Origin: a virus
Strand: one strand, 5' to 3'
Length of the DNA: 44,147 bases
IMG/VR virus record: IMGVR_UViG_3300031507_000015
Location: 1-44,147 of that record
Each line of letters opens with the position of its first letter. Position 1 is the stretch's first letter. The position numbers and the translations under genes were made by a program. This document shows, piece after piece, positions 11,793 through 40,747 of this stretch. Under the pieces are notes generated by a model. The model searched no databases. It was not told where the DNA came from and worked only from the letters and a program-made list of their open reading frames with translations.

Positions 11793-13382
11793 TTAAGTTG
11801 GAGTGAAGACGATACTAGAATAATTACCTGTGCTGGTCGCTGCAGTTGCAGACGCGACCGCTTTGATGGATAGAAAATCTCCTTGAACCACACTAACGGT
11901 ATGCGTGTTATCCGATGCAGTTTGACTGGCACCAGTAACAGTACAGGTCAAAGCAGTGGCACCAGTTCCTTTGTCCAGCGTGATAGTAAATGTTTGAGCA
12001 CCGCCGGGGGCGTTGTTGCATTGGAATGTCAAATTAGACAGCGTACCAGCTCTAGGTATTATTACATAATTAGCATCAGAGGCGCTGGAAAATCCTGGTC
12101 CGTAGAATACGGTTGCACCGCCTGCGAGCGCGGTATTAGCACCGAAGCTGATGATGGACATTGCCCCGCTTGTTCCACCCGTGCCACCATTGGCGATAGG
12201 CAGAGCGCCGGAGACTTCTGAGGCAAGCGCGATCGTCGCGGCATGATCCTTGATGAGTTTGCCTGTCGTTCCATTATAGACGGCAAATCCATTGGCCGTG
12301 GCGGCTGCTGGTCCTACAACATCACCACTACCCGATGGCGTAACCCATGTTCCGTCACCTCGCCAGAATGTCGTAGATGAAGCGCTGGTTCCACTATTGA
12401 GATTGTTGACCGATAGATTTCCGGTGACGCCCGTCGACAGCGGAAGACCAGTGCAGCTCGTCAACGTGCCAGATGATGGTGTGCCGAGCACACCGCCATT
12501 GAGAACCGGTGATCCGGCCGTACCGACATTGACCGCCAGCCCAGCCAGCACGCCCGTGCCGGCTCCAGTGAGACCGGTCGAGATCGGAAGCCCAGTGCAG
12601 CTTGTCAGCGTTCCTGACGAAGGCGTTCCCAGCGCCGGCGTGACAAGAGTCGCCGAGGTGACCCGAACGAAGTTGCCGCTGCCGCTGGTACTGGTGAATG
12701 TCGCAACACCAGCGGAGAACAGAGGCACGCCGGATTGCGCGCTGACATCGGCACCAAATCCTCCACGCGCCGCGGCGAGCGTCCCGGTCCAACCCAGAGT
12801 GAGCGATGTTGCCTTCAGCAACGCGGTTGTCGGTGTACCACCAAGCGTCAGCGTGACGTTAGTGTCGTCTGTCTTGGTGAGCGCCGTCCCGCTGGCAATG
12901 TCGGAGGCAGGGATCGTCCCGACCGTAACAGCCGCGCCTGTCGTGACCTGCTTGAGATATTGACCCGCGCCACCGGTTGCGCTCAGATCGGCGTTTGTGC
13001 CACCATAGGTCAGATTGACCTTGGTACCCTGCCAGGTGCCAGCGGCAATCGTTCCGACTGTGGTGATGCTCGCCTGCCCGACATAGGCAGCATCGATATC
13101 AAGTGTCGGATCGCCTGCCGTACCTGCGCCATTCGTGACGGAAATGCGACTGGCTGTGCCCGTAATGGTCCGTTTAGTGAAGGTGTCCGCAGCAGTTTCG
13201 ACGACGAGACCTGCCGTTGAATCGAGCGCAGCAAGAGCATCGAGCGTAAGATCATGCGCCTGAACATCAGAACCGATCGTCAGTCCAGTGACGACATGCG
13301 TGTCATTCCAATCCGAAAGATCGACCTCAACCGCAGAATTGACCGTTCCGCTCGTTACCTTGCGGTGCGTAATGCTAGACAT
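11793..13382 (-). CDS. Tail fibre
   Basis: 529 aa. Fibre-type motifs [20 protein letters not shown] and [11 protein letters not shown]. Gly/Thr-rich, with an internal 23-aa repeat. Confidence 0.7.
12420..12632 (-). repeat. Two copies of a 23-aa motif [16 protein letters not shown][IL]STG[LV]TG inside the fibre gene
   Basis: aa 251-273 (12564..12632) and aa 299-321 (12420..12488). The nucleotide copies differ at many synonymous sites. Confidence 0.85.
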
Positions 13383-13558
13383 CAGATTTCAGGCGTCCAT
13401 GTTTCAGCTTGAATGACATTTTGAGTCCATCTGCCGCCAGCTTCTCCGGTATCGAAGCGCGGTGAATTATCGAAGCCGGCCGGATCGAATCCCCTCGTTA
13501 AGCCGCTTTCGGATATCCATGTTTCAGCCTGGATCGTTGCCGGGGTCCACGTCGTCAT
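13382..13558 (-). CDS. Small Trp-rich protein, 58 aa (not in the ORF track)
   Basis: My hand translation gives [62 protein letters not shown] overlap with the upstream stop and TGATG overlap with the fibre start. Confidence 0.5.
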
Positions 13559-14205
13559 GGCGTTAGCCCGGAACTGCGGACCTGTAGTGGTCCAGCATTG
13601 AACGTGGATGTCATCCCCAGCACATTCAGACTATCCCGAGCTGATTGGAAGCCGAGCCCCCATGTCTGAATCCGCGCGTCCTCCTTGATGTACGGAGCGG
13701 ATTCGAGCAGCGCTCCATAGAGGTAGAGGTCAGGCGCCATGGTAAGCAGCCAATTCGTTGAATTCGTCGTCGATAGTGCAGGGATATTCTGCCGATAGAC
13801 CATCTCGATTGTATAGTTTTGGTCAGGTGTCGGCAGCAGCTCCATCTCAACGCCGAACACCGAGAAATACCGGGGTTGTCCAGCGATATTCCCGCTCGAC
13901 AGGCGAAGCTCATCCATCTGGAGAGCTGAACGGAATTCGAGCGCAGGTTTGCCCGTGACGCTCGATAGCCTGACGCGCCTCATCGACTGAAAGTCTAAGG
14001 GAAGAGATATGAACTCAGGCTCGGCCGAGAGAATATTGACTGGGGTAGTCGAGCGCAGTTCCATCTGCCTGACGAACAACTCCCGATTCATCTTGGATTC
14101 GAACAACTGAATGAAGGTCGGGATTCTCGCAATCAAGGTCGTATCCTGATCGCGTGCCAGCCACTCAATCACGGCCGCTTGCAGGCTGGTGTAATCAGTG
14201 ATCAT
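13555..14205 (-). CDS. Head-tail adaptor / tail tubular A-like protein
   Basis: 216 aa. The N-terminus MITDYTSLQAAVIEWLARDQ...IPTFIQLFE resembles phage adaptor proteins as I recall them. ATGA overlap at 14202-14205. Confidence 0.35.
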   Translation of the reverse strand: MITDYTSLQAAVIEWLARDQDTTLIARIPTFIQLFESKMNRELFVRQMELRSTTPVNILSAEPEFISLPLDFQSMRRVRLSSVTGKPALEFRSALQMDELRLSSGNIAGQPRYFSVFGVEMELLPTPDQNYTIEMVYRQNIPALSTTNSTNWLLTMAPDLYLYGALLESAPYIKEDARIQTWGLGFQSARDSLNVLGMTSTFNAGPLQVRSSGLTP

Positions 14206-14830: not shown

Positions 14831-15199
14831 TTACGCCGTCTGAATGACGAAGAAGCCATTCGTAACGCAGGCGGTCGAGCCGGCGCCGTCCGACAGGATC
14901 TCGAGCGTGTCATCTTCGTTGCAGAAATTCAACGCAGTGGGGACGAGGGATTTGACATCTCCAGCAGCGGAGCCAGAAGCCGCGACGGTCAAAGCCCCAC
15001 CGGTGATAGCAGTGCCGTTGATCTTTGCGGTGAACACGCGATCAGAGTCCACGACAGCGCCCAGGACAACGCCAAGCTTGACGATCTTTCCCCGAAACGG
15101 CGCGCGCGCGTACATGGAAACCGCCGCACTGGAATCGGCCACGGTACTGGTATTGACGGCATGTTCCCTGAGCGTCGGGTGGACGGTTGGAAGAGTCAT
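14831..15199 (-). CDS. Hypothetical head/neck-module protein
   Basis: 122 aa. GAGGAA upstream of ATG 15199. First gene after the terminator. Confidence 0.55.
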   Translation of the reverse strand: MTLPTVHPTLREHAVNTSTVADSSAAVSMYARAPFRGKIVKLGVVLGAVVDSDRVFTAKINGTAITGGALTVAASGSAAGDVKSLVPTALNFCNEDDTLEILSDGAGSTACVTNGFFVIQTA

Positions 15200-15210: not shown

Positions 15211-15233
15211 ATAAAAAGGGGGCGAAATGCCCC
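15211..15233 (-). terminator. Intrinsic terminator candidate after the capsid/glycosyltransferase sub-operon
   Basis: Minus strand reads TAA-CT-GGGGC-ATTTC-GCCCC-C-TTTTTAT. A 5-bp all-GC stem is followed by a T-run, and then by the next gene's GAGGAA and ATG. Confidence 0.45.
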
Positions 15234-15235
15234 AG

Positions 15236-15913
15236 TTAAATCCGCACCAGTTGATCCGCGAACCTGCCGCGGTATTCCTTTGTCCCGATATGTCCGAGAT
15301 CAACCGATTGATCGAGATACGGCTGATATCCCAGCGCTTTCACATCCGAGAAGAACGCCATATCCTCGCCCCTCGCCTCACCGTCCGGTTCATCGAAGCG
15401 GAAGATCTTCGCGACCTTTTCACCGGGAAGACTGACGCTGAAGGTCAAGAGAGGAGCCTTCTTGGCCAGTTCCTCCATTAGCTTCCGGGTCACAATGGTA
15501 AAGCCGAGCCCGACACCTTCAATCGGCATGCATCCCCATTGGTTGGGGACGACCTTTGATGTGTTCTTCAGCCCAACATAGAATTTGGCCGGCTCGGTCT
15601 TGGCTGTATAGGTCGCGCTGACACAATCCATTTTGGTCGAGAGCGCCAGCAGCCTGAAGAAGCTATCCGTCGTCCAGACCATATCGGAATCGATCATGAA
15701 CATCCGGTTATGCTCGCTCTTGAGAAACCGGTGTGCAGCGAGCGACCGTGCGTGAAACACGGTGCTTCCTACATTCATCTCGATATCGATCGCGATCCCA
15801 TGCCTCGCACAGGCGGATTGAGTTTCCAGCAGGCATTTGACGGTGCCTGCTGGAATATTGTCGAAGACGGGCATTGCGAGAAGGATCGAAATGCCCGTCA
15901 GGTTGACCTGCAT
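15236..15913 (-). CDS. Glycosyltransferase (GT-A-like, soluble)
   Basis: 225 aa. ISILLAMPVF start, DxD-like MIDSDM, later GEDMAFFSD and LGHIG. TGATG overlap with the upstream gene. Confidence 0.7.
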   Translation of the reverse strand: MQVNLTGISILLAMPVFDNIPAGTVKCLLETQSACARHGIAIDIEMNVGSTVFHARSLAAHRFLKSEHNRMFMIDSDMVWTTDSFFRLLALSTKMDCVSATYTAKTEPAKFYVGLKNTSKVVPNQWGCMPIEGVGLGFTIVTRKLMEELAKKAPLLTFSVSLPGEKVAKIFRFDEPDGEARGEDMAFFSDVKALGYQPYLDQSVDLGHIGTKEYRGRFADQLVRI

Positions 15914-16470
15914 CAGACGGTGGCCGACAGGGGCGTCGTGGTCATTGCGGCCGTATCCATACCGAGGATCTGGAAGAAGCCAGCCGCGATATCCGTGATG
16001 GTATAGACCGCAGCCGCACCGCCTCCCGTGGTCGTTCCGTTCAGCGTGATGGTGTCACTGGTCGCCGTATTCTTGAACCCGATCAGAACGCCCGCCGTGG
16101 TGTTCAGGGAAACAATCAGGCCCTGCATGACATCGACCGTGTTCGCAACCTTGATAGTCGATTGCGTTGCGGTCGCTGCCACGTTGATGACAAACTCATA
16201 GGCCGCACCGGTTCCGGTGGCGGCGGGAAGCGTGACGGCGATCGGGGCGGTGTTGTTGAGGATGATCCTGCGGTTACCGTGAGCCGCCTGCGTCACGGTC
16301 AGAACGGTTGAAGCCGCACTGACTGCAACAACAGCCTTTGAGCCGCCCATCAGATCTCCGACCGTTGCCGTTGCCGCCCGACCGGTAGCGCTATCCTTGA
16401 TCGGGAATTGATCGGCAGTCGCGAGTGGTGCAGCCTTCAGGGGACTGTCAAATGTGTCTGTGGTACCCAT
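15913..16470 (-). CDS. Head decoration / cement protein candidate
   Basis: 185 aa, Thr/Ala/Val-rich and beta-rich. AAGGAG upstream. Starts 12 nt after the major capsid gene. Confidence 0.4.
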   Translation of the reverse strand: MGTTDTFDSPLKAAPLATADQFPIKDSATGRAATATVGDLMGGSKAVVAVSAASTVLTVTQAAHGNRRIILNNTAPIAVTLPAATGTGAAYEFVINVAATATQSTIKVANTVDVMQGLIVSLNTTAGVLIGFKNTATSDTITLNGTTTGGGAAAVYTITDIAAGFFQILGMDTAAMTTTPLSATV

Positions 16471-16482
16471 GATCCAGTCTCC

Positions 16483-17445
16483 TTACGAGGTAGTGTTGTC
16501 GAAAACGCCGCCCGACGATTTCTCGTTGCGGGCGACGAGGGCGTATTCGGCCAGAATCTGACGTCGATCCGAATCGCCGGTCTTGGCGAGCGGAATGGAG
16601 ATCATGTTGCGGCCGTTGAGATAGGCGAGCGCCCATTTCTCGATTTCGAGGATCAGGACATCGCGAGCCCGCTGAAAGCGATCGGCGACGACCTTGAGCT
16701 TGCCGAAATCGCTTTCGTAAGCGTCGACAGATGCGACGATCTTCTTGCTTGACGCCTGTTCGATCGCGGAAGACCGGCCGGTGAAGGTCGAAAACACTTG
16801 CTTGTTGAAGGCGCCGGTCATGATCGTTCCCGGCTTGCCGCCATTGGTCCAGATCGAGGATAGGACGGTTTTCATGCGGTTTTCGGTGAAGGCAAGCTGG
16901 GTGCCATCAGTCCTGGAACCCGTACCATCAGCCGCAGCCGGATCGGCAGCGCCGCCCGCAGTTCCCTTTGAGGTGTTCGACTTGATCCACGACAGGACGG
17001 AAGCTGTCTTGCGGGGAGTTGCGTCGGCGCCAGCCACCTTGGCCTGGTTGGTTCCCGCCAGGATGGTTTCGAGATCGCGCTTCAGCTCAAGACCCTTGAG
17101 CATCTCCTGATAGGCCAGCTCATTGTCGCGGCCGGCATGCTGAACGGCCTGCTGGGTACCCGAGACACGGGCAACCTTGTAGCTGATCTGGCATTGGTTG
17201 CCGAGACGCACGGTAGGCGTCGTGGAGTTGGTCGTGGGGTCATCACCCTCGAGCTGGGCGTTGGTGCCATCGGCCGCCGCAAGAGCCTGGGTCTGCCATT
17301 CGTGATTGACGGCGGTCGCCTTTTCACGGGCGATCGACGACATGAACGGGGTATCGGTCGGATCGATGCGATAAATCATATCCGACAGGTCCTCACGATT
17401 GCCGATCGCTTCCGGCGTCGCGAAGGTGTTGGTTGGGAGTGCCAT
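16483..17445 (-). CDS. Major capsid protein (HK97-fold family used by BPP-1/SU10-type podoviruses)
   Basis: 320 aa. N-terminal IGNREDLSDMIYRIDPTDTPFMSSI...HEWQTQAL signature. Follows the scaffold gene. Confidence 0.8.
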   Translation of the reverse strand: MALPTNTFATPEAIGNREDLSDMIYRIDPTDTPFMSSIAREKATAVNHEWQTQALAAADGTNAQLEGDDPTTNSTTPTVRLGNQCQISYKVARVSGTQQAVQHAGRDNELAYQEMLKGLELKRDLETILAGTNQAKVAGADATPRKTASVLSWIKSNTSKGTAGGAADPAAADGTGSRTDGTQLAFTENRMKTVLSSIWTNGGKPGTIMTGAFNKQVFSTFTGRSSAIEQASSKKIVASVDAYESDFGKLKVVADRFQRARDVLILEIEKWALAYLNGRNMISIPLAKTGDSDRRQILAEYALVARNEKSSGGVFDNTTS

Positions 17446-18976: not shown

Positions 18977-19314
18977 CAGATGATTTTGTCCTCATCCGGG
19001 ACATCTCCACCCTCGACTTGGGCGTTTACCGGCTCGTTGACCGCGTCGGATCGCTCGATCTCGCCAGAGAGCGCAACATGGTATTGCGGGCCATCCACTG
19101 CGGTCGCAGGGTCTGCCATGGGCATCGCAAAAACGGGCTTCGAAGCAAGCTTCATGCTGTCTTCGCCCATAGCGATGACCGGCGATGGAGCCTTGACGAT
19201 ATCCCAACCCTCCGAGCGGAGCCGCTCCAGGATTTCCCGGATCTCGCCCTGTCCAAACCGAGCCATGTGGGTCTTGTCGCGGAGAAATTTGATCAGGTCT
19301 TCATCATTTTGCAT
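18976..19314 (-). CDS. Hypothetical head-module protein
   Basis: 112 aa, acidic. Overlaps the portal 3' end by 11 nt. Confidence 0.55.
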   Translation of the reverse strand: MQNDEDLIKFLRDKTHMARFGQGEIREILERLRSEGWDIVKAPSPVIAMGEDSMKLASKPVFAMPMADPATAVDGPQYHVALSGEIERSDAVNEPVNAQVEGGDVPDEDKII

Positions 19315-21085
19315 TGTTTGGCTCCGGTTTCTGCCTCATCTGCTCTAATTTTGCCTCATGCGTAGCTTGAGCATGTTCCATTTTCGTATCGTGCGCATGG
19401 GCTGTAGCCGCCATATCGACGACCTTCGAAACAACATCGGCGTGATGCAACTGAGCACCCTGCCGCATTTTCTGCTCAGCCTGGATTGCCGCGATATGCG
19501 CGTTGATGATCGCAATCTTGGCGTCGAGATCGGCCTTGACCTTGGCAACCTCGATATCAGCCTGAGCTTTGATCTGCTGATGAAGCATGTCAGCTTGGGC
19601 GGTCGCCTGATCATGAGCCTGTTTCTGCTGGGCGATCTGCTGTTGACCCTGCTGCTTGAGCTGCTCGACCTGCAATTTAGGATCAGGTGCAGGCGGAGCA
19701 GGCGGATGCAGCAATTGCCCGGTCTTAGGATCTTTGGCGGTGGGATCATTGAAAAACTGATCCGGGTTCTTGTGGCCCATGATCTTGGTGAGCTCGGACG
19801 CAGTATTGTATAATTCCCGATCTCCAACCAAATTCGACTTTCCGCCAGCCAACATTTCCTTCTGAACATTGGCTATCGCCATGGTCTGAGCGAACTGCTG
19901 GGCCTTGCCACCGGTTCCAAGCCCGACATTAATTGTCATGTCGTCGCGGGTTTTCCAGTTGCGCGGATCGACCGGTACCCATTTATTGCGAAGCCGAACG
20001 GTCTGTTCTTCCTGCCCGTGCGATCTGATCGTATGGTGCAGCAGCGCGAAGATTTCCCGCACGCCCTCGGCCATGATACGAGCCACCAGTTTGACGCGCA
20101 TCTGAGAGGCCGAGAATACCTGAGCCACCGCGGTAGCCGATTGGTTTTGCAGCGCGTTGGCATCTAAGCCCTGCGTCTGCTTGGCCAAGCCGGTACGAGA
20201 CTCCAGCAGGCTATCCATATACTCCATTGCTTTAAACGCCGAGGCGGATGTATCCGGAATCTCTTGCCATTTCAAAAGACCAGCCGCTTTGGTACGAATC
20301 ACTCGACCTGGACGTTTAGGACCAAGCAAGTCATCAATCGTACTTGGACCACTCGCGGCCTCAGGTAATTCAACATCTGCGCCCGTTGATAAATATTGGC
20401 TATCAAGCCCATTTCTGAGCAACGCAGTCTTAATTCGTTGCGTCGGCATGACGAGATCAGCCATCGACCGGCCAAAGAATCGATGCGTGATCGGAACCGG
20501 AGTGGTCGCGGCGAACGGAATGATATCAACCGGCTCGACAACTTCTTTGCCGCCCTTTTTCAGGATATCGGCCTGATCTCCTCCGGTTATCACCATGTAA
20601 AGGCATGGAGTTCCACGCCCCTCGTAGTCCATCCTGATATAATGCTCGGTGATGCGAACCAATTGCATCAGAGCATCGACGTCAGAGGACGTGATGAAAT
20701 GCTCCTGGACCGAATCTCTGGCCAAGGTTTCAACGTTGTTCGGGCTCTGGCCGCTGAACGCTGTCAGGCCGAGAACCTGGTCCCGATCGAATCCCTCATT
20801 GATCAGCTGTCCCCGCGTCTTGGTCACAACTTCATGGAAGCAGTAATTGCAATCCTTGATGTTGCGCGCCGCGCGCTCGATCCCGAATTCTTCCGGCGGA
20901 ACTCCCATCACCCGAGCCCGCGCCAGTTTGCGGGTGGTGATGATCGTGACGTCGTGCGTGACCGGCTTAGGCGGCACTGGAGGCATTGCAGCCATCTGCT
21001 GCTGGGGCGTCATCGGAGCAAGCGCGTTCTGGGCTGGCCCTTGATCGATTGGGTTGCCCTGAGCCGCGCCGACGTATGCGTTCAT
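19304..21085 (-). CDS. Portal protein, C-terminal major part
   Basis: 593 aa. Portal-type VPPEEFGIERAARNIKDCNYCFHEV region and a ~130-aa C-terminal coiled coil. Follows the terminase. Confidence 0.8.
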   Translation of the reverse strand: MNAYVGAAQGNPIDQGPAQNALAPMTPQQQMAAMPPVPPKPVTHDVTIITTRKLARARVMGVPPEEFGIERAARNIKDCNYCFHEVVTKTRGQLINEGFDRDQVLGLTAFSGQSPNNVETLARDSVQEHFITSSDVDALMQLVRITEHYIRMDYEGRGTPCLYMVITGGDQADILKKGGKEVVEPVDIIPFAATTPVPITHRFFGRSMADLVMPTQRIKTALLRNGLDSQYLSTGADVELPEAASGPSTIDDLLGPKRPGRVIRTKAAGLLKWQEIPDTSASAFKAMEYMDSLLESRTGLAKQTQGLDANALQNQSATAVAQVFSASQMRVKLVARIMAEGVREIFALLHHTIRSHGQEEQTVRLRNKWVPVDPRNWKTRDDMTINVGLGTGGKAQQFAQTMAIANVQKEMLAGGKSNLVGDRELYNTASELTKIMGHKNPDQFFNDPTAKDPKTGQLLHPPAPPAPDPKLQVEQLKQQGQQQIAQQKQAHDQATAQADMLHQQIKAQADIEVAKVKADLDAKIAIINAHIAAIQAEQKMRQGAQLHHADVVSKVVDMAATAHAHDTKMEHAQATHEAKLEQMRQKPEPNNAK

Positions 21086-21291
21086 TAATCGCGCCGGACC
21101 ATGAATTGACGGCTTATATCATTATACGCCGATGGTGAAAAATGCCTGATATCATCCAATACGTTGCCGGCCTCATCAGTTCTAACGTGCATCGCTGTGC
21201 CAATAGCGCCTCCGGAAATTGACACATGAACCATATAGCCAATTGGGAACATCCCCCAATTACTACACGATCTCATATAATTTTCGTTCAT
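21085..21291 (-). CDS. 68-aa ORF inserted between the two portal parts
   Basis: One-base stop/start overlaps on both sides (TGATG, TAATG). Its DNA is visibly AT-richer than the flanks. No recognisable family. Confidence 0.45.
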   Translation of the reverse strand: MNENYMRSCSNWGMFPIGYMVHVSISGGAIGTAMHVRTDEAGNVLDDIRHFSPSAYNDISRQFMVRRD

Positions 21292-21872
21292 CAGTTCGTC
21301 TCTGCCTCTTCCTTGGGCTCCGTAGCCTCCTGCGCTTCACCCTCCTGCGAATGCGCCACGATCTTCATTGCCCCATCCGACATATCAACGGCCTGAACGA
21401 GCAGCGCATATTGATCTTCGGTCAGGTCGTAATAGGTCTCGCGCTCCTCGCGCTCGTCCTCGTCCCACCAGACTTTGACCAGCCCGGTTTTGCTCAGAAG
21501 CCCGTCCTTTATGAACGAATACAGCACCATAAAGCCCGAATTCTGCTGCATGAAGACGTGGTTGACGTAATCGGTTTCCTGCTGCGCCGCTTCCTCGTCC
21601 TCTGGGCCGACAGGCTCAAACCTAACCACTTCGTCAGATCCCGCAAAGATGTCCATCAGATGCGGTAGCATGCCCTCGATCACATCAGAGACGTCGGTGG
21701 ACACTGCCCGCGACCGGCCATCCTGCGCCGGCATGTCCTGCATGTCGCCGAGATAGTATTCCATCGCCCTGGCGCGCTCTTCCATGAGCTGAGCTGCTGA
21801 CATCGCGGCTAGAGAGTTGGCCTTTTCGGCCGAAAGCATCGCCTTGAGGTCAGTTAGTTCCATCTTTGGCAA
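21291..21872 (-). CDS. Portal protein, N-terminal part (separate ORF)
   Basis: 193 aa. It carries YYLGD...GRSRAVSTDVSDVIEGMLPHLMDIF...VVRFEP...ETDYVNHVF...KDGLLSKTGLVKVWW, which I recognise as a portal N-terminal signature. TTG 21872 or ATG 21863 is the start. Confidence 0.6.
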   Translation of the reverse strand: MPKMELTDLKAMLSAEKANSLAAMSAAQLMEERARAMEYYLGDMQDMPAQDGRSRAVSTDVSDVIEGMLPHLMDIFAGSDEVVRFEPVGPEDEEAAQQETDYVNHVFMQQNSGFMVLYSFIKDGLLSKTGLVKVWWDEDEREERETYYDLTEDQYALLVQAVDMSDGAMKIVAHSQEGEAQEATEPKEEAETN

Positions 21873-25780: not shown

Positions 25781-26251
25781 CTAGACCCCTTTCAATTTCG
25801 ACAGGGCCTCGGTGCTGATCAAAGGCCGAGATCGTCTATCCTCAGAGACAGTAGTAGTTATATTTCTTTGTGTATGTGTCATGCTTGAGCAAAACGGAGC
25901 ATTTGCTTTCGCTATGAAGCTGTTCATCTGTGTCCTGGAACCGCCCTTTTGCCCAGCAATTGCCCTAGCATTTGCTACCTTTGCACGTTTCTCAAGCTCA
26001 GCTTCAAGGCGTTTATGCCGCCAACCCATGTAAAAGAACGCCTGGATCGTCTCCTTGCTATCCAACCAAATACGCAGCGGTAGCTTAGCAATTGCTGCTA
26101 GTTGCTTGTCATCGGTGGGGAGTTCGCGCTTGCGCCAATAGTGCATGAGCAAGAGCAGATATGCCCCATGCTGCGTTGTCGACAGATGACCCGTGTCAGC
26201 GAGATAATCGCCAACATAAAGAGGCATCCACAGGTCAGTCTTTTTGCTCAT
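25781..26251 (-). CDS. DUF1376-family protein (phage replication-module associated)
   Basis: 156 aa. N-terminal signature LWMPLYVGDYLADTGHLSTTQHGAYLLLLMHYW. Confidence 0.8.
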   Translation of the reverse strand: MSKKTDLWMPLYVGDYLADTGHLSTTQHGAYLLLLMHYWRKRELPTDDKQLAAIAKLPLRIWLDSKETIQAFFYMGWRHKRLEAELEKRAKVANARAIAGQKGGSRTQMNSFIAKANAPFCSSMTHTQRNITTTVSEDRRSRPLISTEALSKLKGV

Positions 26252-29779: not shown

Positions 29780-29924
29780 TAGCCAAACCCGCGCCAACGA
29801 TCTCTTGGCAATCTGGCAGCAGCAGCGCGCGGCCGGCATTCCACCGGAGCAGCGCTGGCTACCGGACGACGAGTTCGAGCGGGATCTTGAGGTTATCCGG
29901 CAATGCCTGGAGCGGAAGATATGA
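29769..29924 (+). CDS. 51-aa protein (not in the ORF track)
   Basis: MRADSQTRANDLLAIWQQQRAAGIPPEQRWLPDDEFERDLEVIRQCLERKI. Its stop forms an ATGA overlap with the Gp157-like start. Confidence 0.45.
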   Translation: MRADSQTRANDLLAIWQQQRAAGIPPEQRWLPDDEFERDLEVIRQCLERKI

Positions 29925-30502
29925 CAGACGACCTGCATAGGGCCATCGAGGCTGCAAAGAGCTTGCGCCTCGATATTGCGCGCCTCGTGCAAGGTGACGA
30001 GCAGGCGCTTGCGGATACATTCGACGGCGAGACGACGCTTGACGCGGAAATCCGCGCTGCGGTGCTCCTAATCGAGGAGGACGAGATTTTCGTCACCGGT
30101 ATCAAGGCGCGGGAAACCGAGCTGAAGAACCGGCGCCTGCGGTTCGAGAAGCGGATCGAGGCAACGCGCGGCCTGATTGAGCAGGCAATGATACTGGCAC
30201 AATGGCCAAACCTGGAGATGGACATCGGAACCGTGTCACTGGGCAAAGCCGCGCCGCGTCTGGAGATCGACGATGAGAGCACAATCCCGACCCAGTTTTG
30301 GAAGCGCAACGACCCGACGCTCGACAAGGCTGGACTAACCAAGGCTATGCGCGAGCGGCAGAAGGCTCTGGAGGGAGTTGCGAGGATCAAAAAGATCGAG
30401 GATCGCGTACTCGCCGAGGCTGTGATTGATGACGAAATGCCGGTAATCCCCGGCGTCCACATGGAAACCAGCGGCGTTTCGCTGACCATTCGGAGGGCCT
30501 AA
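29921..30502 (+). CDS. Siphovirus-Gp157-like protein (recombination-module partner)
   Basis: 193 aa from ATG 29921. Coiled-coil N-half and a C-half with IDDESTIPTQFW. Immediately upstream of recT, as is usual for this family. Confidence 0.5.
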   Translation: MTDDLHRAIEAAKSLRLDIARLVQGDEQALADTFDGETTLDAEIRAAVLLIEEDEIFVTGIKARETELKNRRLRFEKRIEATRGLIEQAMILAQWPNLEMDIGTVSLGKAAPRLEIDDESTIPTQFWKRNDPTLDKAGLTKAMRERQKALEGVARIKKIEDRVLAEAVIDDEMPVIPGVHMETSGVSLTIRRA

Positions 30503-30503
30503 T

Positions 30504-31445
30504 ATGAACCAAATTGCACGCATTCAGCCGGCAGGCATCGCCTCGTGGACCTCGCGCCAGTTGGACACCATCAAGCGTACCGTCGCACGGGATACGAATG
30601 ACGACGAGTTCAATCTGTTCATCGAATATGCGCGGTCGAAGCAGCTCGATCCGTTCTCGAAACAGATCATCGCTGTCGTCTATTCGAAGGACAACGCTGA
30701 AAAGCGAAAAATGACGATCATTGTGACGCAGGACGGCCAGCGCGTCTTGGCCTCCCGCTGCCGCGATTATCGCCCAGCCGAAACCGAGCCAGAGTTCATT
30801 ATTCAGGCCGGCCTGAAATGCCCAACGAATCCGCTCGGCCTTGAAAAGGTAACGATCACGCTGTGGAAGCAGGACAGCGGCGCGGTGTGGCACCCGGTCA
30901 AGGGCTGGGCCTATTGGGACGAATACGCGCCGGTCAAGGAAGAATGGGCATACAGCCAGGAAGAGAACAAGCGCAAGCCGACCGGGAAACTGACGCTCGA
31001 TGCCTCTGGAAATTGGGCCAAGATGCCCCGCGTGATGCTGGCGAAGTGCGCCAATATGGTCGCGCTGCGCGCCGGATGGCCCGAAACATTCTCCGGACTT
31101 TACGTCGAGGAAGAGATGGAACGCACTGTCGTTCAGGACAGGACCGCCTCTGAACTGGTCGAGATGGAGCGCGAAGATCGCCGTATGAAGTCCATCTCCA
31201 TGTCGGACGACGAATACCCCTTCGTCGACCATGAAGGGACAATGACGTTCATCCCAGCCGGCCGCTACGGCGATCGCGTCATCATGACTGCCAGGAACTG
31301 CACCGAGTTGGCCGAACTCGACAGCATGAAGGTCCGCAACCGGGAGGGCCTGCAGCGCTTCTGGGCTCGTCACAAGGATGATGCGCTGTCTGTGAATGCG
31401 GAGATGGAGAAGCTTCGCGCAGCGCTCACAAAGGCCGCGTCATGA
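30504..31445 (+). CDS. recT: RecT/Bet-family single-strand annealing protein
   Basis: 313 aa. N-terminal region LDTIKRTVARDTNDDEFNLFIEYARSKQLDPFSKQIIAV is typical of RecT. Confidence 0.8.
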   Translation: MNQIARIQPAGIASWTSRQLDTIKRTVARDTNDDEFNLFIEYARSKQLDPFSKQIIAVVYSKDNAEKRKMTIIVTQDGQRVLASRCRDYRPAETEPEFIIQAGLKCPTNPLGLEKVTITLWKQDSGAVWHPVKGWAYWDEYAPVKEEWAYSQEENKRKPTGKLTLDASGNWAKMPRVMLAKCANMVALRAGWPETFSGLYVEEEMERTVVQDRTASELVEMEREDRRMKSISMSDDEYPFVDHEGTMTFIPAGRYGDRVIMTARNCTELAELDSMKVRNREGLQRFWARHKDDALSVNAEMEKLRAALTKAAS

Positions 31446-31951
31446 ATAAACCATTGGCCATCCGCGCAACCTATTCCGACTGGCGCCTGATCAAAACACG
31501 CGGCGTCGTTCAGGTCGTGATGGAAGTGCCATTGGCTGATGCTGACGCAGCCTATGATGTTCTCGGTGGAATGCCAAATCCAGCGAATGAGCGCTGGTTC
31601 GGGATTGCTCCGATAAAGGAGGTGATGCCAAATACCTCATCCAAACCCGCAGTTGATGCACGGCCCGAGCCGAAACAGGACAAACCGGCTCGGGCCAAGC
31701 GCGAGTGGCGGGATCTTCCGCCGGATATGCAAGCAGGAATCAGATGCAATGATCCGGCGTTCTCCGCCTTTCTGTGCGAAGAACATCCCGATGATTGGCA
31801 TGAGAGCATGGGAAGCGTTGACGAATGCGTCCGGCTGATCTGTGGCGTAACTTCCCGCGCCGAGCTTGTAACACACCACAGAGCCCGTGTGCTCTGGCAC
31901 CAACTTGACGAACAGTTCTTGACACAAAAGGCTTTGGAGCGCGCATCATGA
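31442..31951 (+). CDS. Hypothetical protein downstream of recT
   Basis: 169 aa. ATGA overlaps at both ends. Confidence 0.6.
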   Translation: MNKPLAIRATYSDWRLIKTRGVVQVVMEVPLADADAAYDVLGGMPNPANERWFGIAPIKEVMPNTSSKPAVDARPEPKQDKPARAKREWRDLPPDMQAGIRCNDPAFSAFLCEEHPDDWHESMGSVDECVRLICGVTSRAELVTHHRARVLWHQLDEQFLTQKALERAS

Positions 31952-32508
31952 ACATACGCGGCGAAAAGCGAACCGAGTTTCCACAATCAATTCGCAAGGC
32001 GGCGTTGCCACCCGCCAGCATTGTCAGAGGTCGTTTGAGCTATTGCCCATCGACTGGTGTCTTCACCTGGAGAACAAGCGAAGGTCCGAATTCTGCAATC
32101 GGAATGACTGCTGGATTTTCAAGTCGGAAAGGCTATCGAAAAATAAAACTGCACGGTGGATGCTTCGCGGCCCATCGGTTGGCGTGGATTTATATGACAG
32201 GGGATGATCCAGGATCGCGCTATGTCGACCACTGGAACGGTAAGACTGACGACAATAGATGGTCGAACCTGCGCCTTGCGTCACATGGTCAAAACAAGGC
32301 CAATTCCAGACTACATAGAAATAACACTACTGGCCTAAAGGGTGTTTCTCCGGTCACCGGCTCTCCACGATGGCAGGCAAGGATACGCAAAGATCGAAAA
32401 CTGATCTATCTGGGCGTCTATGCCACAAAGGAAGAGGCTCACGCGGCATATAAGAAAGCGGCAAAGGAACACTTCGGAGAATTTGCAAACGGAGGATATG
32501 GCCAATGA
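31948..32508 (+). CDS. HNH homing endonuclease with AP2 DNA-binding domain
   Basis: 186 aa. HNH_3-type AHRLAWIYMTGDDPGSRYVDHWNGKTDDNRWSNLRLAS. AP2-type GLKGVS...WQARIRKDRKLIYLGVYATKEEAHAAYKKAAKEHFGEFA. Confidence 0.8.
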   Translation: MNIRGEKRTEFPQSIRKAALPPASIVRGRLSYCPSTGVFTWRTSEGPNSAIGMTAGFSSRKGYRKIKLHGGCFAAHRLAWIYMTGDDPGSRYVDHWNGKTDDNRWSNLRLASHGQNKANSRLHRNNTTGLKGVSPVTGSPRWQARIRKDRKLIYLGVYATKEEAHAAYKKAAKEHFGEFANGGYGQ

Positions 32509-32888
32509 GCCTCGGTTTAAAAAGACGGGAGTTCCCACAAAGCATAAAGAAAGCTGCTTTCGCGCGTGCATGCCAGCCAACTGGTATACCTCGTTGCGAG
32601 GCCCCAGGCTGCGGCAAGGTGATCCGCGCCGGCCATCTGATATTCGAGCATGTGCAGCCAGACGGGCTCGGCGGTGAACCTACGATCGACAACTGCAAAT
32701 GCTATTGCGATGTCTGCGCGACGAAGAAGACATTCGAGGAAGACAACCCGAGAATGGCAAAGGCCGACCGGGTGCTTAAGGCAACGTTCGGGATGAAGCG
32801 CAAGGGTCGGCCAATGCCGGGATCGAAGGCAAGCGGATTCAAGCGGAAAATGTCTGGCGTAGTCGTCAGGCGTGGGTTTTCACGGTGA
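32505..32888 (+). CDS. HNH endonuclease (small, Zn-finger type)
   Basis: 127 aa. CEAPGCGK...FEHVQPDGLGGEPTIDNCKCYCDVCATKKT. Confidence 0.7.
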   Translation: MSLGLKRREFPQSIKKAAFARACQPTGIPRCEAPGCGKVIRAGHLIFEHVQPDGLGGEPTIDNCKCYCDVCATKKTFEEDNPRMAKADRVLKATFGMKRKGRPMPGSKASGFKRKMSGVVVRRGFSR

Positions 32889-32957
32889 TTGGGAACAACT
32901 AAAAATGTGTGAGCACTTACACACTTACATGTGTGCCCCGATAGAGAGAGACAAGCC

Positions 32958-33485
32958 ATGAGCCGGGAAGAGATCGCGCTGAAGCCGTGCCCGTTCTGTG
33001 GAAATCCGGGTGCAATATGTGTGCTCGAGGACGAGCCTGGATCTCCGGCAAGTTTCTGGGTCAACTGCTCTTGCGGCGTCGAGACGCCTGAGCGTCGCAC
33101 CGAGGATGAGGCAATCGCGCTTTGGAATACCCGCGTCATCCCCGCTCAGGGTGAGCCGGTCACACCTCCAACTATAGCGTTGGTTCTCAGTGATGATGGT
33201 CGTCGCTGGCGGCCCCTTCAGAGTTCACCCGCGCCCTATCCAGGCTCTCTCAACTCCGGAGAGAGTGATCTGCATGTCACTGCAGATTCTGGCGCGGGTG
33301 AAGCCATCTTCGCCGAATGCGCCGAGATCGCGCTGGAGCATGTGGGCGCCGTGAAAGATGAAGACGACTATTCCTATGGCGCAGGATACGACGCCGCCTG
33401 CAGTGACATCGCCAACACCATCAAGACGCGGGCCTCGAACCGCAAGACGATGGACGCGATCGCCACACAGGGAGAGCAAAAATGA
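32958..33485 (+). CDS. Lar-family (restriction-alleviation-like) N-domain protein with a 110-aa C-extension
   Basis: 175 aa from ATG 32958. LKPCPFCGNPGA...VNCSCGVETPERRTEDEAIALWNTRV matches the Lar-like zinc-ribbon pattern. Confidence 0.6.
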   Translation: MSREEIALKPCPFCGNPGAICVLEDEPGSPASFWVNCSCGVETPERRTEDEAIALWNTRVIPAQGEPVTPPTIALVLSDDGRRWRPLQSSPAPYPGSLNSGESDLHVTADSGAGEAIFAECAEIALEHVGAVKDEDDYSYGAGYDAACSDIANTIKTRASNRKTMDAIATQGEQK

Positions 33486-36739: not shown

Positions 36740-36934
36740 ATGGCGAAGAGTGAAAAGCGAAATCTCAACCCCACGGCGCCTGCTGTTCTGGCCATGTGGC
36801 GATGGGGTGAAGAATATGCGGCACAGCGGGGCGGCGTCATGGATTTCTGGGATACCCTCTCAGAAAGCCGCAAACGGCTTTGCGTTGATGCCGCAGAACG
36901 TGTCGCTGAAATTCTAAGACCGAGTGGTCGCTAA
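36740..36934 (+). CDS. Hypothetical protein
   Basis: 64 aa from ATG 36740, with GGAGACGGT upstream. Confidence 0.5.
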   Translation: MAKSEKRNLNPTAPAVLAMWRWGEEYAAQRGGVMDFWDTLSESRKRLCVDAAERVAEILRPSGR

Positions 36935-36968
36935 CGGCAAGAATGCGAAACTCAATAAGGAAAGTCTG

Positions 36969-37442
36969 ATGCCGAGCGGCGGAGCTTTAAAAGGAAAGGG
37001 TCGAGGGCTGCTTTGGCTCAAGGCTCACATCTGGCACGCAGGCCAAGAATGTCTGATCTGGCCGTTCTGCACGAACCATCAGGGCTATGGTCAGCTTGGA
37101 TATTTCGGCAAGGTCGTAAAGGCTCACCGCCTCATGTGCATCCTTGCTCATGGGGAACCGCTGACGCCACAGCATCAGGCGGCTCATTCCTGCGGCCAAG
37201 GCCATACCGGCTGCGTTCACCCGGAGCATGTTTCTTGGAAGACGCCGCGGGAAAACCGCATAGAGTCGAACGAGCACGGCACTGGCCACGGGCGCCTAGG
37301 TCGCAAGGAGCTTTCGCCGGACATTGTTTTGAAGATCCGGTACAGCCCAAAATCATACTTGGATATCGCCGACGAGTTCGGCGTCTACTTTGGCACGGTG
37401 GGGAAGATCAAGCGGCGCGAACTTTACCCTAACCTTTCATAG
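36969..37442 (+). CDS. HNH / His-Me-finger endonuclease with C-terminal HTH-like tail
   Basis: 157 aa from ATG 36969. GYGQLGYFGKVVKAHRLMC...AAHSCGQGHTGCVHPEHVSWKTPRENRIES. Confidence 0.7.
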   Translation: MPSGGALKGKGRGLLWLKAHIWHAGQECLIWPFCTNHQGYGQLGYFGKVVKAHRLMCILAHGEPLTPQHQAAHSCGQGHTGCVHPEHVSWKTPRENRIESNEHGTGHGRLGRKELSPDIVLKIRYSPKSYLDIADEFGVYFGTVGKIKRRELYPNLS

Positions 37443-38153: not shown

Positions 38154-38342
38154 ATGAAGCTTGAAATTTCTAAAGAGCAGTGCATGCGCCTCGCGTCACT
38201 TGAGGGTGACGGCGAGATTGGAGCCGGTCTTCCAGAGATAAGATACGGCTGGAACGGACCTCGCGGACGCCGTTGGAATGGGAACACAGAAGAGTGGGAA
38301 TCTGTCGAGATTGATCCTCCGACGCAGCCAAAGTCGCCTTAA
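38154..38342 (+). CDS. Hypothetical protein
   Basis: 62 aa. GGAG upstream. Confidence 0.5.
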   Translation: MKLEISKEQCMRLASLEGDGEIGAGLPEIRYGWNGPRGRRWNGNTEEWESVEIDPPTQPKSP

Positions 38343-38364
38343 CATCACATTCAGGCTGGAATTT

Positions 38365-38730
38365 ATGAAGAAACCCCACGGCAATAAAGGCAGACCTTCG
38401 AAGCTTCGCGGCCGTGGTCGCTGCATGGCGTGGCTTCTGGCCCACGTCGATTATCGGCATGATGACTGCCTGAAGTGGCCATTCAGCCGTGACAATCACG
38501 GCTATGGCCAGCTCGGCCATGAAGGGAAGGTCTTCAAAGCGCACCGCAAGATGTGTGAGTTGAAGAACGGGGCAGCACCGAGCCCTGATCACGAAGCGGC
38601 GCATTCATGCAACCGAGGCCACCAAGGCTGCATCAATCCGAACCATTTATCGTGGAAAACGAGATCCGCGAACCAGCAGGATCGAACCGGCCACGGCTGG
38701 GACGTCCAAATCGTCGGCTGCGATAGCTGA
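38365..38730 (+). CDS. HNH / His-Me-finger endonuclease, shorter paralogue of 36969..37442
   Basis: 121 aa from ATG 38365. GYGQLGHEGKVFKAHRKMC...AAHSCNRGHQGCINPNHLSWKTRSANQQD. Lacks the C-terminal tail of its paralogue. Confidence 0.65.
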   Translation: MKKPHGNKGRPSKLRGRGRCMAWLLAHVDYRHDDCLKWPFSRDNHGYGQLGHEGKVFKAHRKMCELKNGAAPSPDHEAAHSCNRGHQGCINPNHLSWKTRSANQQDRTGHGWDVQIVGCDS

Positions 38731-39455: not shown

Positions 39456-39734
39456 ATGCCACAAATCGCGGAAATCAAAGATATCGATGGCTATGTTTGG
39501 GTGCGCATTCCCATGGAACTTGGAAGCCCCGTACAGATTCTTTCCCCATCCGAGATCGAGGAAAACCAAGAGCGCGTGATGAGGTATCTTGATGAGATTG
39601 ACCGGCTGAGGACAGCCAATTCAGCCATGCTGAAGGCACTGAAGAAGATCGAACAACGCACGAATGATCCAGTGGCCCGTAGCATAGCTGGCGAAACAGC
39701 CGTTATCGTTGATCAGCAGAAAGAGCAAACGTGA
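39456..39734 (+). CDS. Hypothetical protein
   Basis: 92 aa. Confidence 0.55.
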   Translation: MPQIAEIKDIDGYVWVRIPMELGSPVQILSPSEIEENQERVMRYLDEIDRLRTANSAMLKALKKIEQRTNDPVARSIAGETAVIVDQQKEQT

Positions 39735-40747
39735 CTGTGAGACTCACGCAGATTGACGGGAAATTGCCGAACCTCGCTCTGATGAAGCTGGCTCGGCACC
39801 ACCGCAATTTGGGAGACGATATCTATTTCACAAAGCGGGTTGAGCGCGACATGCTGGAACCGGACTATACCCATGTTTACGGTTCTGCGATCTTCTCGTT
39901 TAGTGCGGATCGCGTTGCAAAGTTCCGTCAGCAGTTCCCGAACGCTATCGTCGGTGGTACATGGAACAAGGAAGAACATCGCACGGTCGAAAGCGTACTT
40001 GGCACAATAGAGAGCGAAGCGATCGACTATTCGATCTACCCGAACTTTGATGCTTCCATAGGTTTTACGCAGCGTGGATGCCGACTGCGGTGCAGCTTTT
40101 GCGTCGTGCCGTGGAAAGAAGGAAAGCCGCGCACGGTCAACACCATCGCGAGTATTTGGCGGGGAGATCCCTATCCCAAGCATCTGCATCTGCTCGACAA
40201 CGACTTTTTCGGGCAGCCCCAAGCTGAATGGGAGGCTCACCTCGACGCCATCAAGACGGGCGGCTTCAAGATTTGCCTCAACCAGGGCATCAATGTCCGA
40301 ATGATTGACGAAGTGTCGGCGTTTCGGCTCGCCGCTCTGCCCTACTTCGATGACAGTTTCAAATACCGGCGGCTCTATACAGCGTGGGACAGCATCGGTG
40401 ATGAAGGCCGGTTCTTTAAGGGGATCGAGATGTTGCAAAAGCACGGCATCCCACCGAGTCACGTCATGGCCTACATGCTGATCGGGCACGACAAGCGCGA
40501 GACATGGGAGCGTCTTTTCTATCGCTTCAACCGAATGACGGAACTTGGCATTAGGCCCTATCCCATGGTGTTCGGGGACCGCGAAAGAACGCTTCCGGTC
40601 GGCGGCTACAATGGGCGCATTGAACATCGGACACTTGGCGAGTTCCAGCGCTGGGTGATCCGCAAGGCTTATACCTTTATGCCGTTTGAATTTTACGATG
40701 TGAATGCCAAGGGCCGGGCCGTCCCGGAGCAGGCACTTTTGCTTTAA
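39731..40747 (+). CDS. Radical SAM enzyme
   Basis: 338 aa. CRLRCSFC (CX3CX2C, nt 40079-40102) is preceded by a ~110-aa Rossmann/B12-binding-like N-domain. GTG start overlaps the upstream TGA. Confidence 0.8.
   Translation: MTVRLTQIDGKLPNLALMKLARHHRNLGDDIYFTKRVERDMLEPDYTHVYGSAIFSFSADRVAKFRQQFPNAIVGGTWNKEEHRTVESVLGTIESEAIDYSIYPNFDASIGFTQRGCRLRCSFCVVPWKEGKPRTVNTIASIWRGDPYPKHLHLLDNDFFGQPQAEWEAHLDAIKTGGFKICLNQGINVRMIDEVSAFRLAALPYFDDSFKYRRLYTAWDSIGDEGRFFKGIEMLQKHGIPPSHVMAYMLIGHDKRETWERLFYRFNRMTELGIRPYPMVFGDRERTLPVGGYNGRIEHRTLGEFQRWVIRKAYTFMPFEFYDVNAKGRAVPEQALLL

Follow-up and report, generated by a model that had tools for sequence, protein, structure and literature searches.

Introduction

To our knowledge, glycosylation of virions by phage-encoded enzymes has been shown experimentally for only a few mycobacteriophages, where it shields the particles from antibodies. 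Freeman et al. reportedly stated in 2023 that there is little evidence for virion glycosylation beyond the actinobacteriophages. Here we analyze the gene for a 225-aa predicted glycosyltransferase (GT) located at 15236-15913 on the minus strand of the 44,147-nucleotide DNA of a Bradyrhizobium-type phage (positions 1 to 44,147 of the IMG/VR record IMGVR_UViG_3300031507_000015; this whole stretch is called the window hereafter). The gene lies in the head module, where it follows the MCP (major capsid protein) gene and the gene for a spike-like protein. We give an even chance to the reading in which this enzyme glycosylates the virion, most likely on a head-surface protein.

The proven systems are described in three reports that cite the work of Freeman et al. 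(PMC12363180, PMC11600133, PMC12619734), according to which capsid and tail-tube proteins of Che8, Corndog and Myrna are glycosylated by phage GTs. [quoted passage not shown] In Corndog the GT genes adjoin a gene that PMC11600133 describes as encoding an O-methyltransferase. A second group, the cluster J mycobacteriophages, carries an insertion of 8-10 genes after the MCP gene that includes a kinase and a protease gene (PMC3706429).

Results

The 225-aa protein is a predicted soluble GT-A glycosyltransferase

The original prediction had recognized a GT-A-like open reading frame (ORF) from three motifs, ISILLAMP (residues 8-15), MIDSDM (73-78) and GEDMAF (182-187), all of which are present in the translation. 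An alignment of 41 sequences of the family (38-83% identity to the query) shows no variation at R56, D75, D77, G182, E183, D184 and H208, with S76 conserved in at least 90%. The three motifs picked earlier correspond to invariant columns of this alignment, which is more than chance would give. An AlphaFold2 model built on the same alignment has a predicted local distance difference test score (pLDDT) of 95.6 and a predicted template-modelling score (pTM) of 0.91, and it places D75-S76-D77 directly after the strand formed by residues 70-74. A Foldseek comparison of this model with the PDB gave A197 of Sulfolobus turreted icosahedral virus (STIV; 2c0n) as the best match, with an E of 3.7e-10 and template-modelling (TM) scores of 0.59/0.69. 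The next matches are the GT-A enzymes LH3, COLGALT1, B4GALNT1, mimivirus R699, RmlT, TarP and polypeptide GalNAc-transferases, and further ones include KfiA, GlfT2 and vaccinia H3. Overall there are 272 PDB fold matches at E≤1e-3, the listed ones being GT-A glycosyltransferases and related nucleotidyltransferases. The top matches in BFVD are proteins of uncultured Caudovirales with TM scores of up to 0.88, some of which are annotated as GT-A.

Searches with curated models were far less informative. No curated GT family was found in Pfam (E≤0.1) or NCBIfam (E≤1), and a precomputed Pfam domain is present on none of the 120 homologues listed. An Inv-AAD match from the Pfam/NCBIfam search was at chance level and was dropped. 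In PHROG the protein matches phrog_1574 ('unknown function', 6.6e-18) and, weakly, phrog_12406 'glycosyltransferase' (2.4e-4), and a sequence search of the PDB returned A197 alone, with a non-significant E of 0.27 in an alignment that spans the DxD region. Since neither the curated models nor the PDB sequence search were informative, the GT fold is established via structure prediction; assignment of a GT family by profile search went no further than the weak PHROG match. We also observed no hydrophobic or transmembrane segment in the GT, the maximum 19-residue Kyte-Doolittle mean being 1.33. The predicted fold, the invariant DxD, ED and His residues and the lack of a hydrophobic segment agree with the earlier claim of a soluble enzyme, and they indicate that the 225-aa protein is probably a metal-dependent GT-A glycosyltransferase. 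By analogy, G182, E183, D184 and H208 may have catalytic acidic and His-ligand roles.

These data bear on two other readings. One is that the protein is a non-catalytic structural or assembly factor with a GT fold, as is vaccinia H3, which is among the fold matches; the gene is also located among structural genes. Nevertheless, we regard this as extremely improbable, given that all 41 homologues keep the DxD, ED and His residues unchanged, which is unexpected for a non-catalytic scaffold, and that the mode of translation described below suggests a low abundance of the protein. The other reading is that the enzyme glycosylates phage DNA, forming a hypermodified base that evades restriction. Glycosylating DNA is a classical function of phage GTs, and hypermodification cassettes with a GT come in diverse forms (bioRxiv 10.1101/2023.12.21.572611). 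It appears very improbable for this gene because T4-type DNA GTs have a GT-B fold whereas the window GT has a GT-A fold, and because the gene resides in the head module rather than in a nucleotide-metabolism cluster, with sugar-tailoring enzymes and a capsid protein as partners. In addition, there is no hydroxymethylase, TET/JBP-like dioxygenase, cytosine methyltransferase or DNA polymerase among the scanned early ORFs, a set that covers most of those with at least 125 aa and not all of the small ones. The acceptor itself cannot be read from the fold because protein- and polysaccharide-acting GT-A enzymes score alike.

The GT gene is coupled to the capsid and spike-like genes

An ORF check places the MCP gene, the 185-aa and 225-aa genes and the downstream head genes all on the minus strand. 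The MCP (16483-17445, minus strand) is a 320-aa protein of the SU10/HK97 type that matches Pfam SU10_MCP (E 4.4e-94) and the major head protein family phrog_1328 (1.7e-100). It is followed by a 12-nt spacer (16471-16482, minus strand; CCTCGTAAGGAGACTGGATCATG) that contains a GGAG ribosome-binding site, and then by the gene for a Thr/Ala/Gly-rich, all-beta protein of 185 aa (15913-16470, minus strand), a putative capsid spike or head-surface protein that we refer to as SPK. The SPK gene ends in a TGATG overlap (15911-15915, minus strand), where its TGA stop codon, read from 15915 to 15911, shares an A with the ATG of the GT gene. Thus, both the 12-nt gap and the coupling of the GT to the upstream gene are present as originally described. 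No Shine-Dalgarno (SD) sequence is present before the GT ATG (upstream sequence ..GGCCACCGTCTGATG), and this together with the TGATG overlap makes termination and re-initiation the likely mode of GT translation. The gap at the GT junction is likewise short in relatives, at 0-4 nt.

The GT gene is followed by a gene for a 122-aa protein (14831-15199, minus strand) with the SD sequence GAGGAA at 15210-15205. This protein, which is also found 3' of the GT in SU10-type relatives, has no family match in Pfam, PHROG, NCBIfam or PDB profile searches. Two genes for 103-aa proteins then lead to an SU10-type head-to-tail adaptor (13555-14205, minus strand; Pfam SU10_adaptor, 5.2e-30) at the downstream end of the head module. 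A scan of the late region revealed no promoter-like site near or after the GT on the minus strand, and PADLOC gave no defense-system match for the GT or its neighbors.

The GT gene follows the capsid gene across four capsid families

We explored the genomic context of the enzyme by clustering the ORFs of 80 IMG/VR loci in which a member of the GT family is encoded, with position counts taken from the 61 loci that have at least 3 kb of upstream sequence. In 54 of these 61 loci a recognized MCP gene is located at most three genes, or an SPK gene at most two genes, upstream of the GT. Specifically, the GT lies directly after SPK in 19 loci and directly after the MCP in 11, and SPK is one or two genes upstream of it in 30. 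The seven loci with neither gene are in part due to wrong-frame calls of Arg-rich ORFs in GC-rich contigs (for example c98 and c109), which were disregarded as neighbors. The MCPs of the GT loci belong to SU10_MCP, Phage_capsid_2, Phage_capsid_3 and Phage_capsid_4, with portals of the SU10 or P22 type. Given that these MCPs come from four Pfam families, the enzyme follows the capsid gene and not the phage lineage. The synteny survey of about 80 loci therefore ties the enzyme to the capsid gene, as the original prediction had supposed. What did not hold is the earlier view that such an arrangement is rare, since an exhaustive profile search for the GT family returned 309 cluster representatives at E≤1e-30, a number that rises to 5255 at E≤1e-10 and to 13572 at E≤1e-3.

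Many of these loci encode additional enzymes. A methyltransferase dependent on S-adenosylmethionine (SAM; Methyltransf_11 or Methyltransf_24) is often encoded in between, after SPK or the MCP and before the GT, and about 10 loci have GT paralogues in tandem. Natural fusions (among P0269, P0305, P0271, P0344 and P0261) join the GT to Methyltransf_24, to a hexapeptide acyltransferase or to a second GT, partners which are typical glycan-tailoring enzymes. One of these proteins, P0261, has an extra C-terminal domain of 190 aa without family assignment. The window encodes one GT, and Pfam and PHROG scans recognized no methyltransferase in its head module, although many relatives carry such genes.

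The nearest isolate by MCP is Bradyrhizobium phage ppBeUSDA76-2 (70.7% identity by tblastn, 74.3% by BLASTP). This phage has homologues of the MCP, the two 103-aa proteins and the adaptor at 45-74% identity, and its 114-aa protein clusters with the 122-aa protein of the window. Neither SPK nor the GT was found in it. As exactly this pair is missing, SPK and GT constitute an insertion/deletion unit, and the retention of the 122-aa homologue places that gene outside of the unit. Among bacterial genomes, a Bradyrhizobium yuanmingense prophage has an identical gene order, and metagenome-assembled genomes (MAGs) labelled Rickettsiales and Betaproteobacteria carry the GT at the corresponding site beside the capsid gene. 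A contig of a Gemmatimonadaceae MAG exhibits the same head-module neighborhood, where the GT ORF had been missed by the ORF call. A separate observation concerns a 5.6-kb IMG/VR contig (L010, IMGVR_UViG_3300046811_000007) that shares 100% identity with the window across the SPK and GT genes; the same phage was thus sampled in a public metagenome.

This context has to be weighed against the reading that the enzyme acts late in infection on a glycan of the host envelope or on a precursor of it (lipopolysaccharide, exopolysaccharide or capsule), which could mask receptors against loss of progeny on debris or exclude other phages, with the head-module site being an insertion hot-spot effect. Such a role would fit with most characterized GTs of phages on Gram-negative hosts, which act on O-antigen or DNA (reviews cited in PMC12619734). 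GT-A enzymes also commonly act on polysaccharides, as exemplified by RmlT, TarP, KfiA and GlfT2 among the fold matches, and one GenBank relative is annotated as 'polysaccharide biosynthesis'. Furthermore, Pope 2013 treats the genes after the MCP of cluster J phages as non-structural interruptions (PMC3706429). We nonetheless consider modification of a host glycan unlikely. The GT has neither a transmembrane segment nor a GtrA/GtrC-like partner, and its gene, which lacks its own promoter, relies on translation of late structural genes. In addition, one would not expect a host-directed moron to follow the capsid or spike gene directly in almost every locus of four capsid families, or to co-diversify with a head protein.

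The same neighborhood argues against an acceptor elsewhere in the virion, such as the 529-aa fiber-like protein, the 329-aa tail fiber, or several proteins at once. The fibers are the most Ser/Thr-rich candidates, with a Ser+Thr fraction of 0.28 in the 529-aa and 0.23 in the 329-aa protein, and in mycobacteriophages the tail tube is glycosylated besides the capsid (PMC11600133, PMC12619734). However, the GT does not track the fiber genes: the proteins encoded after the adaptor vary widely among GT-bearing loci, while the MCP/spike neighborhood is constant. A non-head acceptor is therefore quite improbable in our estimation, and glycosylation of a head-surface protein is the reading that we carry forward.

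The spike-like partner

SPK contains 23% Ser+Thr and 28% Ala+Gly and has 1498 homologues. It has no match in Pfam, PHROG or NCBIfam, and a sequence-profile search of the PDB gave nothing usable. A match to an S6 ribosomal protein (E 0.12) in the searches with the 185-aa and 122-aa proteins was discarded as chance. The first ~40 residues of SPK are variable and precede a conserved core (approximately residues 45-185) with invariant TLPxAxGxG and LNGTTxGG motifs and a ..TPFSATV C-terminus. The AlphaFold2 model is all-beta with a pLDDT of 84.5, and Foldseek found just two PDB matches below 1e-3, namely a chain from the baseplate region of Klebsiella phage KP1 (1.5e-4) and the capsid spike of Pseudomonas phage Pa223 (9ny6_C). 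The latter match is weak (E 3.7e-4, TM score 0.41, 17% identity over 130 columns). From its modelled fold, SPK is plausibly a head-surface protein or capsid spike, and the 'decoration-like' label originally given to this gene appears to be a reasonable, if tentative, one.

A neighbor-joining tree with 94 leaves shows that the GT-linked SPKs form one clade apart from the GT-less ones, with three changes of the GT trait. The GT-linked clade is present with four capsid types, which indicates that SPK and GT move as a unit between head modules. Two candidate signs of an acceptor site were considered and rejected. The first comprised the N-G-T-T motif that is invariant in the SPK family and the C-terminal ..TPFSATV, rejected because GT-less SPK relatives conserve both equally. 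The second candidate was residue 124, which is Thr or Ser in 37 of 45 GT-linked SPKs and Asp or Asn in all 49 GT-less ones, a contrast also observed within the SU10 and Phage_capsid_4 lineages; residue 102 is similarly T in GT-linked and N in GT-less SPKs. Given the two clades and three trait changes in the tree, the contrast at residue 124 was not accepted as independent evidence. T124 may still be used as a lead to a candidate acceptor site, along with T102 and T55.

A terminator-like hairpin follows the GT gene

Two nucleotides after the GT TAA (15238-15236) there is a terminator-like hairpin (15211-15233, minus strand) of the form GGGGC-AUUUC-GCCCC followed by C-UUUUU-AU. It has five GC pairs and a 5-nt loop, with the stem at 15233-15219 and a T5 run at 15217-15213 that begins 1 nt past the stem. 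The original prediction had called it the only convincing intrinsic terminator of the late operon, and it is indeed the sole minus-strand intergenic hairpin of the late region that combines an all-GC stem with an uninterrupted T5. Its stability is marginal, with a folding energy of -10.7 kcal/mol (z -1.58) that is equalled by 17 of 200 shuffles, and the region as a whole is not enriched for terminator-like sites (17 found versus 11.6 +/- 3.6 expected). In L001, the nearest divergent relative, the same gap contains another, non-homologous and stronger GC hairpin (8 bp, -18.2 kcal/mol), which provides some support for a function. In four other relatives the gap from the GT to the next gene is 0-2 nt with no hairpin, so the feature is confined to the nearest relatives.

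Since no promoter-like site follows and the downstream genes, for the adaptor and the tail, are essential, any termination at this site must be partial. The hairpin is probably a leaky attenuator, with a logic like that of an attenuator after a capsid gene that raises the abundance of capsid mRNA. Of the closed sub-operon of capsid, SPK and GT genes that had been proposed, the coupling of the genes thus stands, whereas the closure is a local feature that has to be leaky.

Other features of the window

The portal gene (19304-21872, minus strand) is split into a 193-aa N-terminal piece (21291-21872), a 68-aa ORF (21085-21291) and a 593-aa C-terminal piece (19304-21085). The pieces are in different frames, and approximately 280 nt match no portal. 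A break at the same residue (~178-199), with spacers of 50-335 nt, is observed in ppBeUSDA76-2 and in five related contigs, and more distant relatives have one continuous ORF. An Rfam search gave no intron family for the interruption, and a two-piece portal, recoding or an unrecognized intron are each possible.

The 529-aa fiber-like protein (11793-13382, minus strand; 28% Ser+Thr) has no family match and contains a near-exact internal repeat, present twice, that includes (I/L)STG(L/V)TG. Its first ~30 residues match the N-termini of otherwise different fibers or tailspikes, one from L001 (782 aa, of the pectate-lyase type) and one from ppBeUSDA76-2. Judged by this match, the N-terminus appears to be an arm for adaptor binding that is common to receptor-binding bodies which can be exchanged.

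The early region on the plus strand encodes a 338-aa radical SAM protein (39731-40747) that matches phrog_9298 (2.2e-41), with Pfam Radical_SAM being below threshold. It also contains four genes for HNH endonuclease-like proteins (31948-32508, 32505-32888, 36924-37442 and 38278-38730), as well as Mu Gam-like (29903-30502), RecT-like (30504-31445), Lar-like (32931-33485) and primosomal-protein-like (25781-26251) genes. Among the early ORFs scanned, neither an integrase nor a DNA polymerase was recognized.

Discussion

A proposed model for glycosylation of the phage head

The proposal that the 225-aa enzyme glycosylates a head-surface protein is based on its predicted GT-A fold with conserved catalytic residues, and on the coupling, the capsid-adjacent position and the co-inheritance with SPK. 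In our model the GT would be made late, on a transcript shared with the MCP and SPK, and would be translated by re-initiation at the SPK stop codon, a mode that would yield the GT in catalytic rather than structural amounts. The enzyme would use a host nucleotide-sugar and would add the sugar in the cytoplasm, before or during assembly, to a head-surface protein, with SPK being the prime candidate acceptor and the MCP the second. This sugar may be the first or the only one, and relatives may extend or tailor it by means of an acyltransferase, an additional GT or an O-methyltransferase. The modification might function in surface masking or in adhesion.

Several observations weigh against this model. 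Among the 68 SPK-family loci with at least 1.5 kb of downstream sequence, only 10 carry the GT, and some GT loci have no detectable SPK gene; SPK thus neither needs the GT nor is the only possible acceptor. Shared ancestry, as seen in the neighbor-joining tree, explains the Thr124-versus-Asp difference in SPK. We also found no GT-specific Ser/Thr C-terminus of the MCP, which ends in ..FDNTTS with the GT and in ..FDNTSS without it, unlike the C-terminal glycosylation of the mycobacteriophages. In addition, hhalign of the family profile detects no relation to Corndog gp38 or gp37 (probability 0.2% and 0.1%, respectively). Finally, non-structural genes are known to insert after the MCP gene (PMC3706429).

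A broader version of the model is that SPK and the GT represent a widespread, unannotated two-gene cassette, composed of a spike-like protein and its own minimal GT-A enzyme, that is often extended, moves between unrelated head modules and glycosylates the capsid exterior. We hold this version somewhat more doubtfully, at a little under an even chance. If it is true, enzymatic virion glycosylation would be widespread among phages that infect Proteobacteria and other Gram-negative bacteria, rather than peculiar to actinobacteriophages. Glycosylated heads would mean that phage particles in soil, water and symbiont systems often bear sugars, with effects on adsorption to mucus and exopolysaccharide, on particle stability, on recognition by defense and immune systems, and on the interpretation of cryo-EM density and virion mass. 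SPK and the GT constitute a two-gene system that is open to co-expression, and natural relatives without exactly this pair provide controls.

Comparison with known systems

Relative to the Gtr-type serotype-converting GTs, the window GT is distinguished by the lack of a transmembrane segment and of a GtrA/GtrC-like partner, and by neighbors that are capsid and head-tail genes. Among solved structures the best match, STIV A197, is similar in being a minimal single-domain viral GT-A protein of ~200 aa, but it comes from an archaeal virus of an unrelated lineage and is not significantly similar in sequence. The next-best structures, LH3/PLOD3, COLGALT1, mimivirus R699 and the polypeptide GalNAc-transferases, match at E values of 3e-7 to 5e-5 and 10-14% identity. 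These are protein-glycosylating GT-A enzymes with a DxD...His metal site; they differ from the window GT in being much larger and multidomain.

For the putative spike the comparison is with Pa223, a Bruynoghevirus. The Bruynogheviruses have an SU10-type MCP that is ~41% identical to that of the window, and in the Pa223 spike gp52 an arm at the N-terminus, which attaches to the capsid, precedes a trimeric beta structure located on the 3-fold axes (bioRxiv 10.1101/2025.06.11.659172). The difference is that gp52 is a longer protein of ~294-295 aa with a TNF-like knob and is not encoded beside the MCP or a GT.

Among the mycobacteriophages, Corndog resembles the window in that gp35-38 are located in the head module, between gp34 and the capsid maturation protease. 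By analogy, the window GT may at best work like the Corndog-type system, and it is not a member by descent. As a side observation, the site of the GT/methyltransferase block within the head module differs between these phages, being after the MCP in Redno2 (L009, 5989-12200) and between gp34 (a hypothetical protein) and the protease in Corndog (L169, 2776-5528).

The cluster J (Omegavirus) GT, represented by Redno2 gp14 and Thibault gp11, is a distant homologue of the window GT (tblastn E 5e-5, 18.5% identity over 90% of the query). Matches with E values of 5e-5 to 2e-4 occur in 35 Mycobacterium phage records, and hhalign aligns the cluster J GT at a probability of 97% and E of 8.7e-11 over 144 columns that include the DxD-equivalent, the acidic motif and GH. 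These GTs encoded directly after the MCP are the only annotated homologues of the enzyme, and their own role is putative. The parallel to mycobacteriophages drawn by the original prediction is therefore borne out by the cluster J homologues, but it does not extend to a detectable relation with the proven Corndog enzymes. The likeness to cluster J is also one of position, in that Redno2 runs from gp13 (MCP) and gp14 (GT) on to gp23 (head-tail connector), while the window runs from the MCP through the 185-aa protein and the GT to the adaptor. Between its GT and the connector, Redno2 encodes a kinase, a methyltransferase and additional GTs, and a methyltransferase and further GTs are likewise found nearby in many relatives of the window GT. 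The differences are that cluster J phages are siphoviruses of actinobacterial hosts, and that the window has a single GT with a spike-like partner. What is comparatively new in the present locus is a head-module GT-A family that has no curated model and is locked to the capsid gene across four capsid families.

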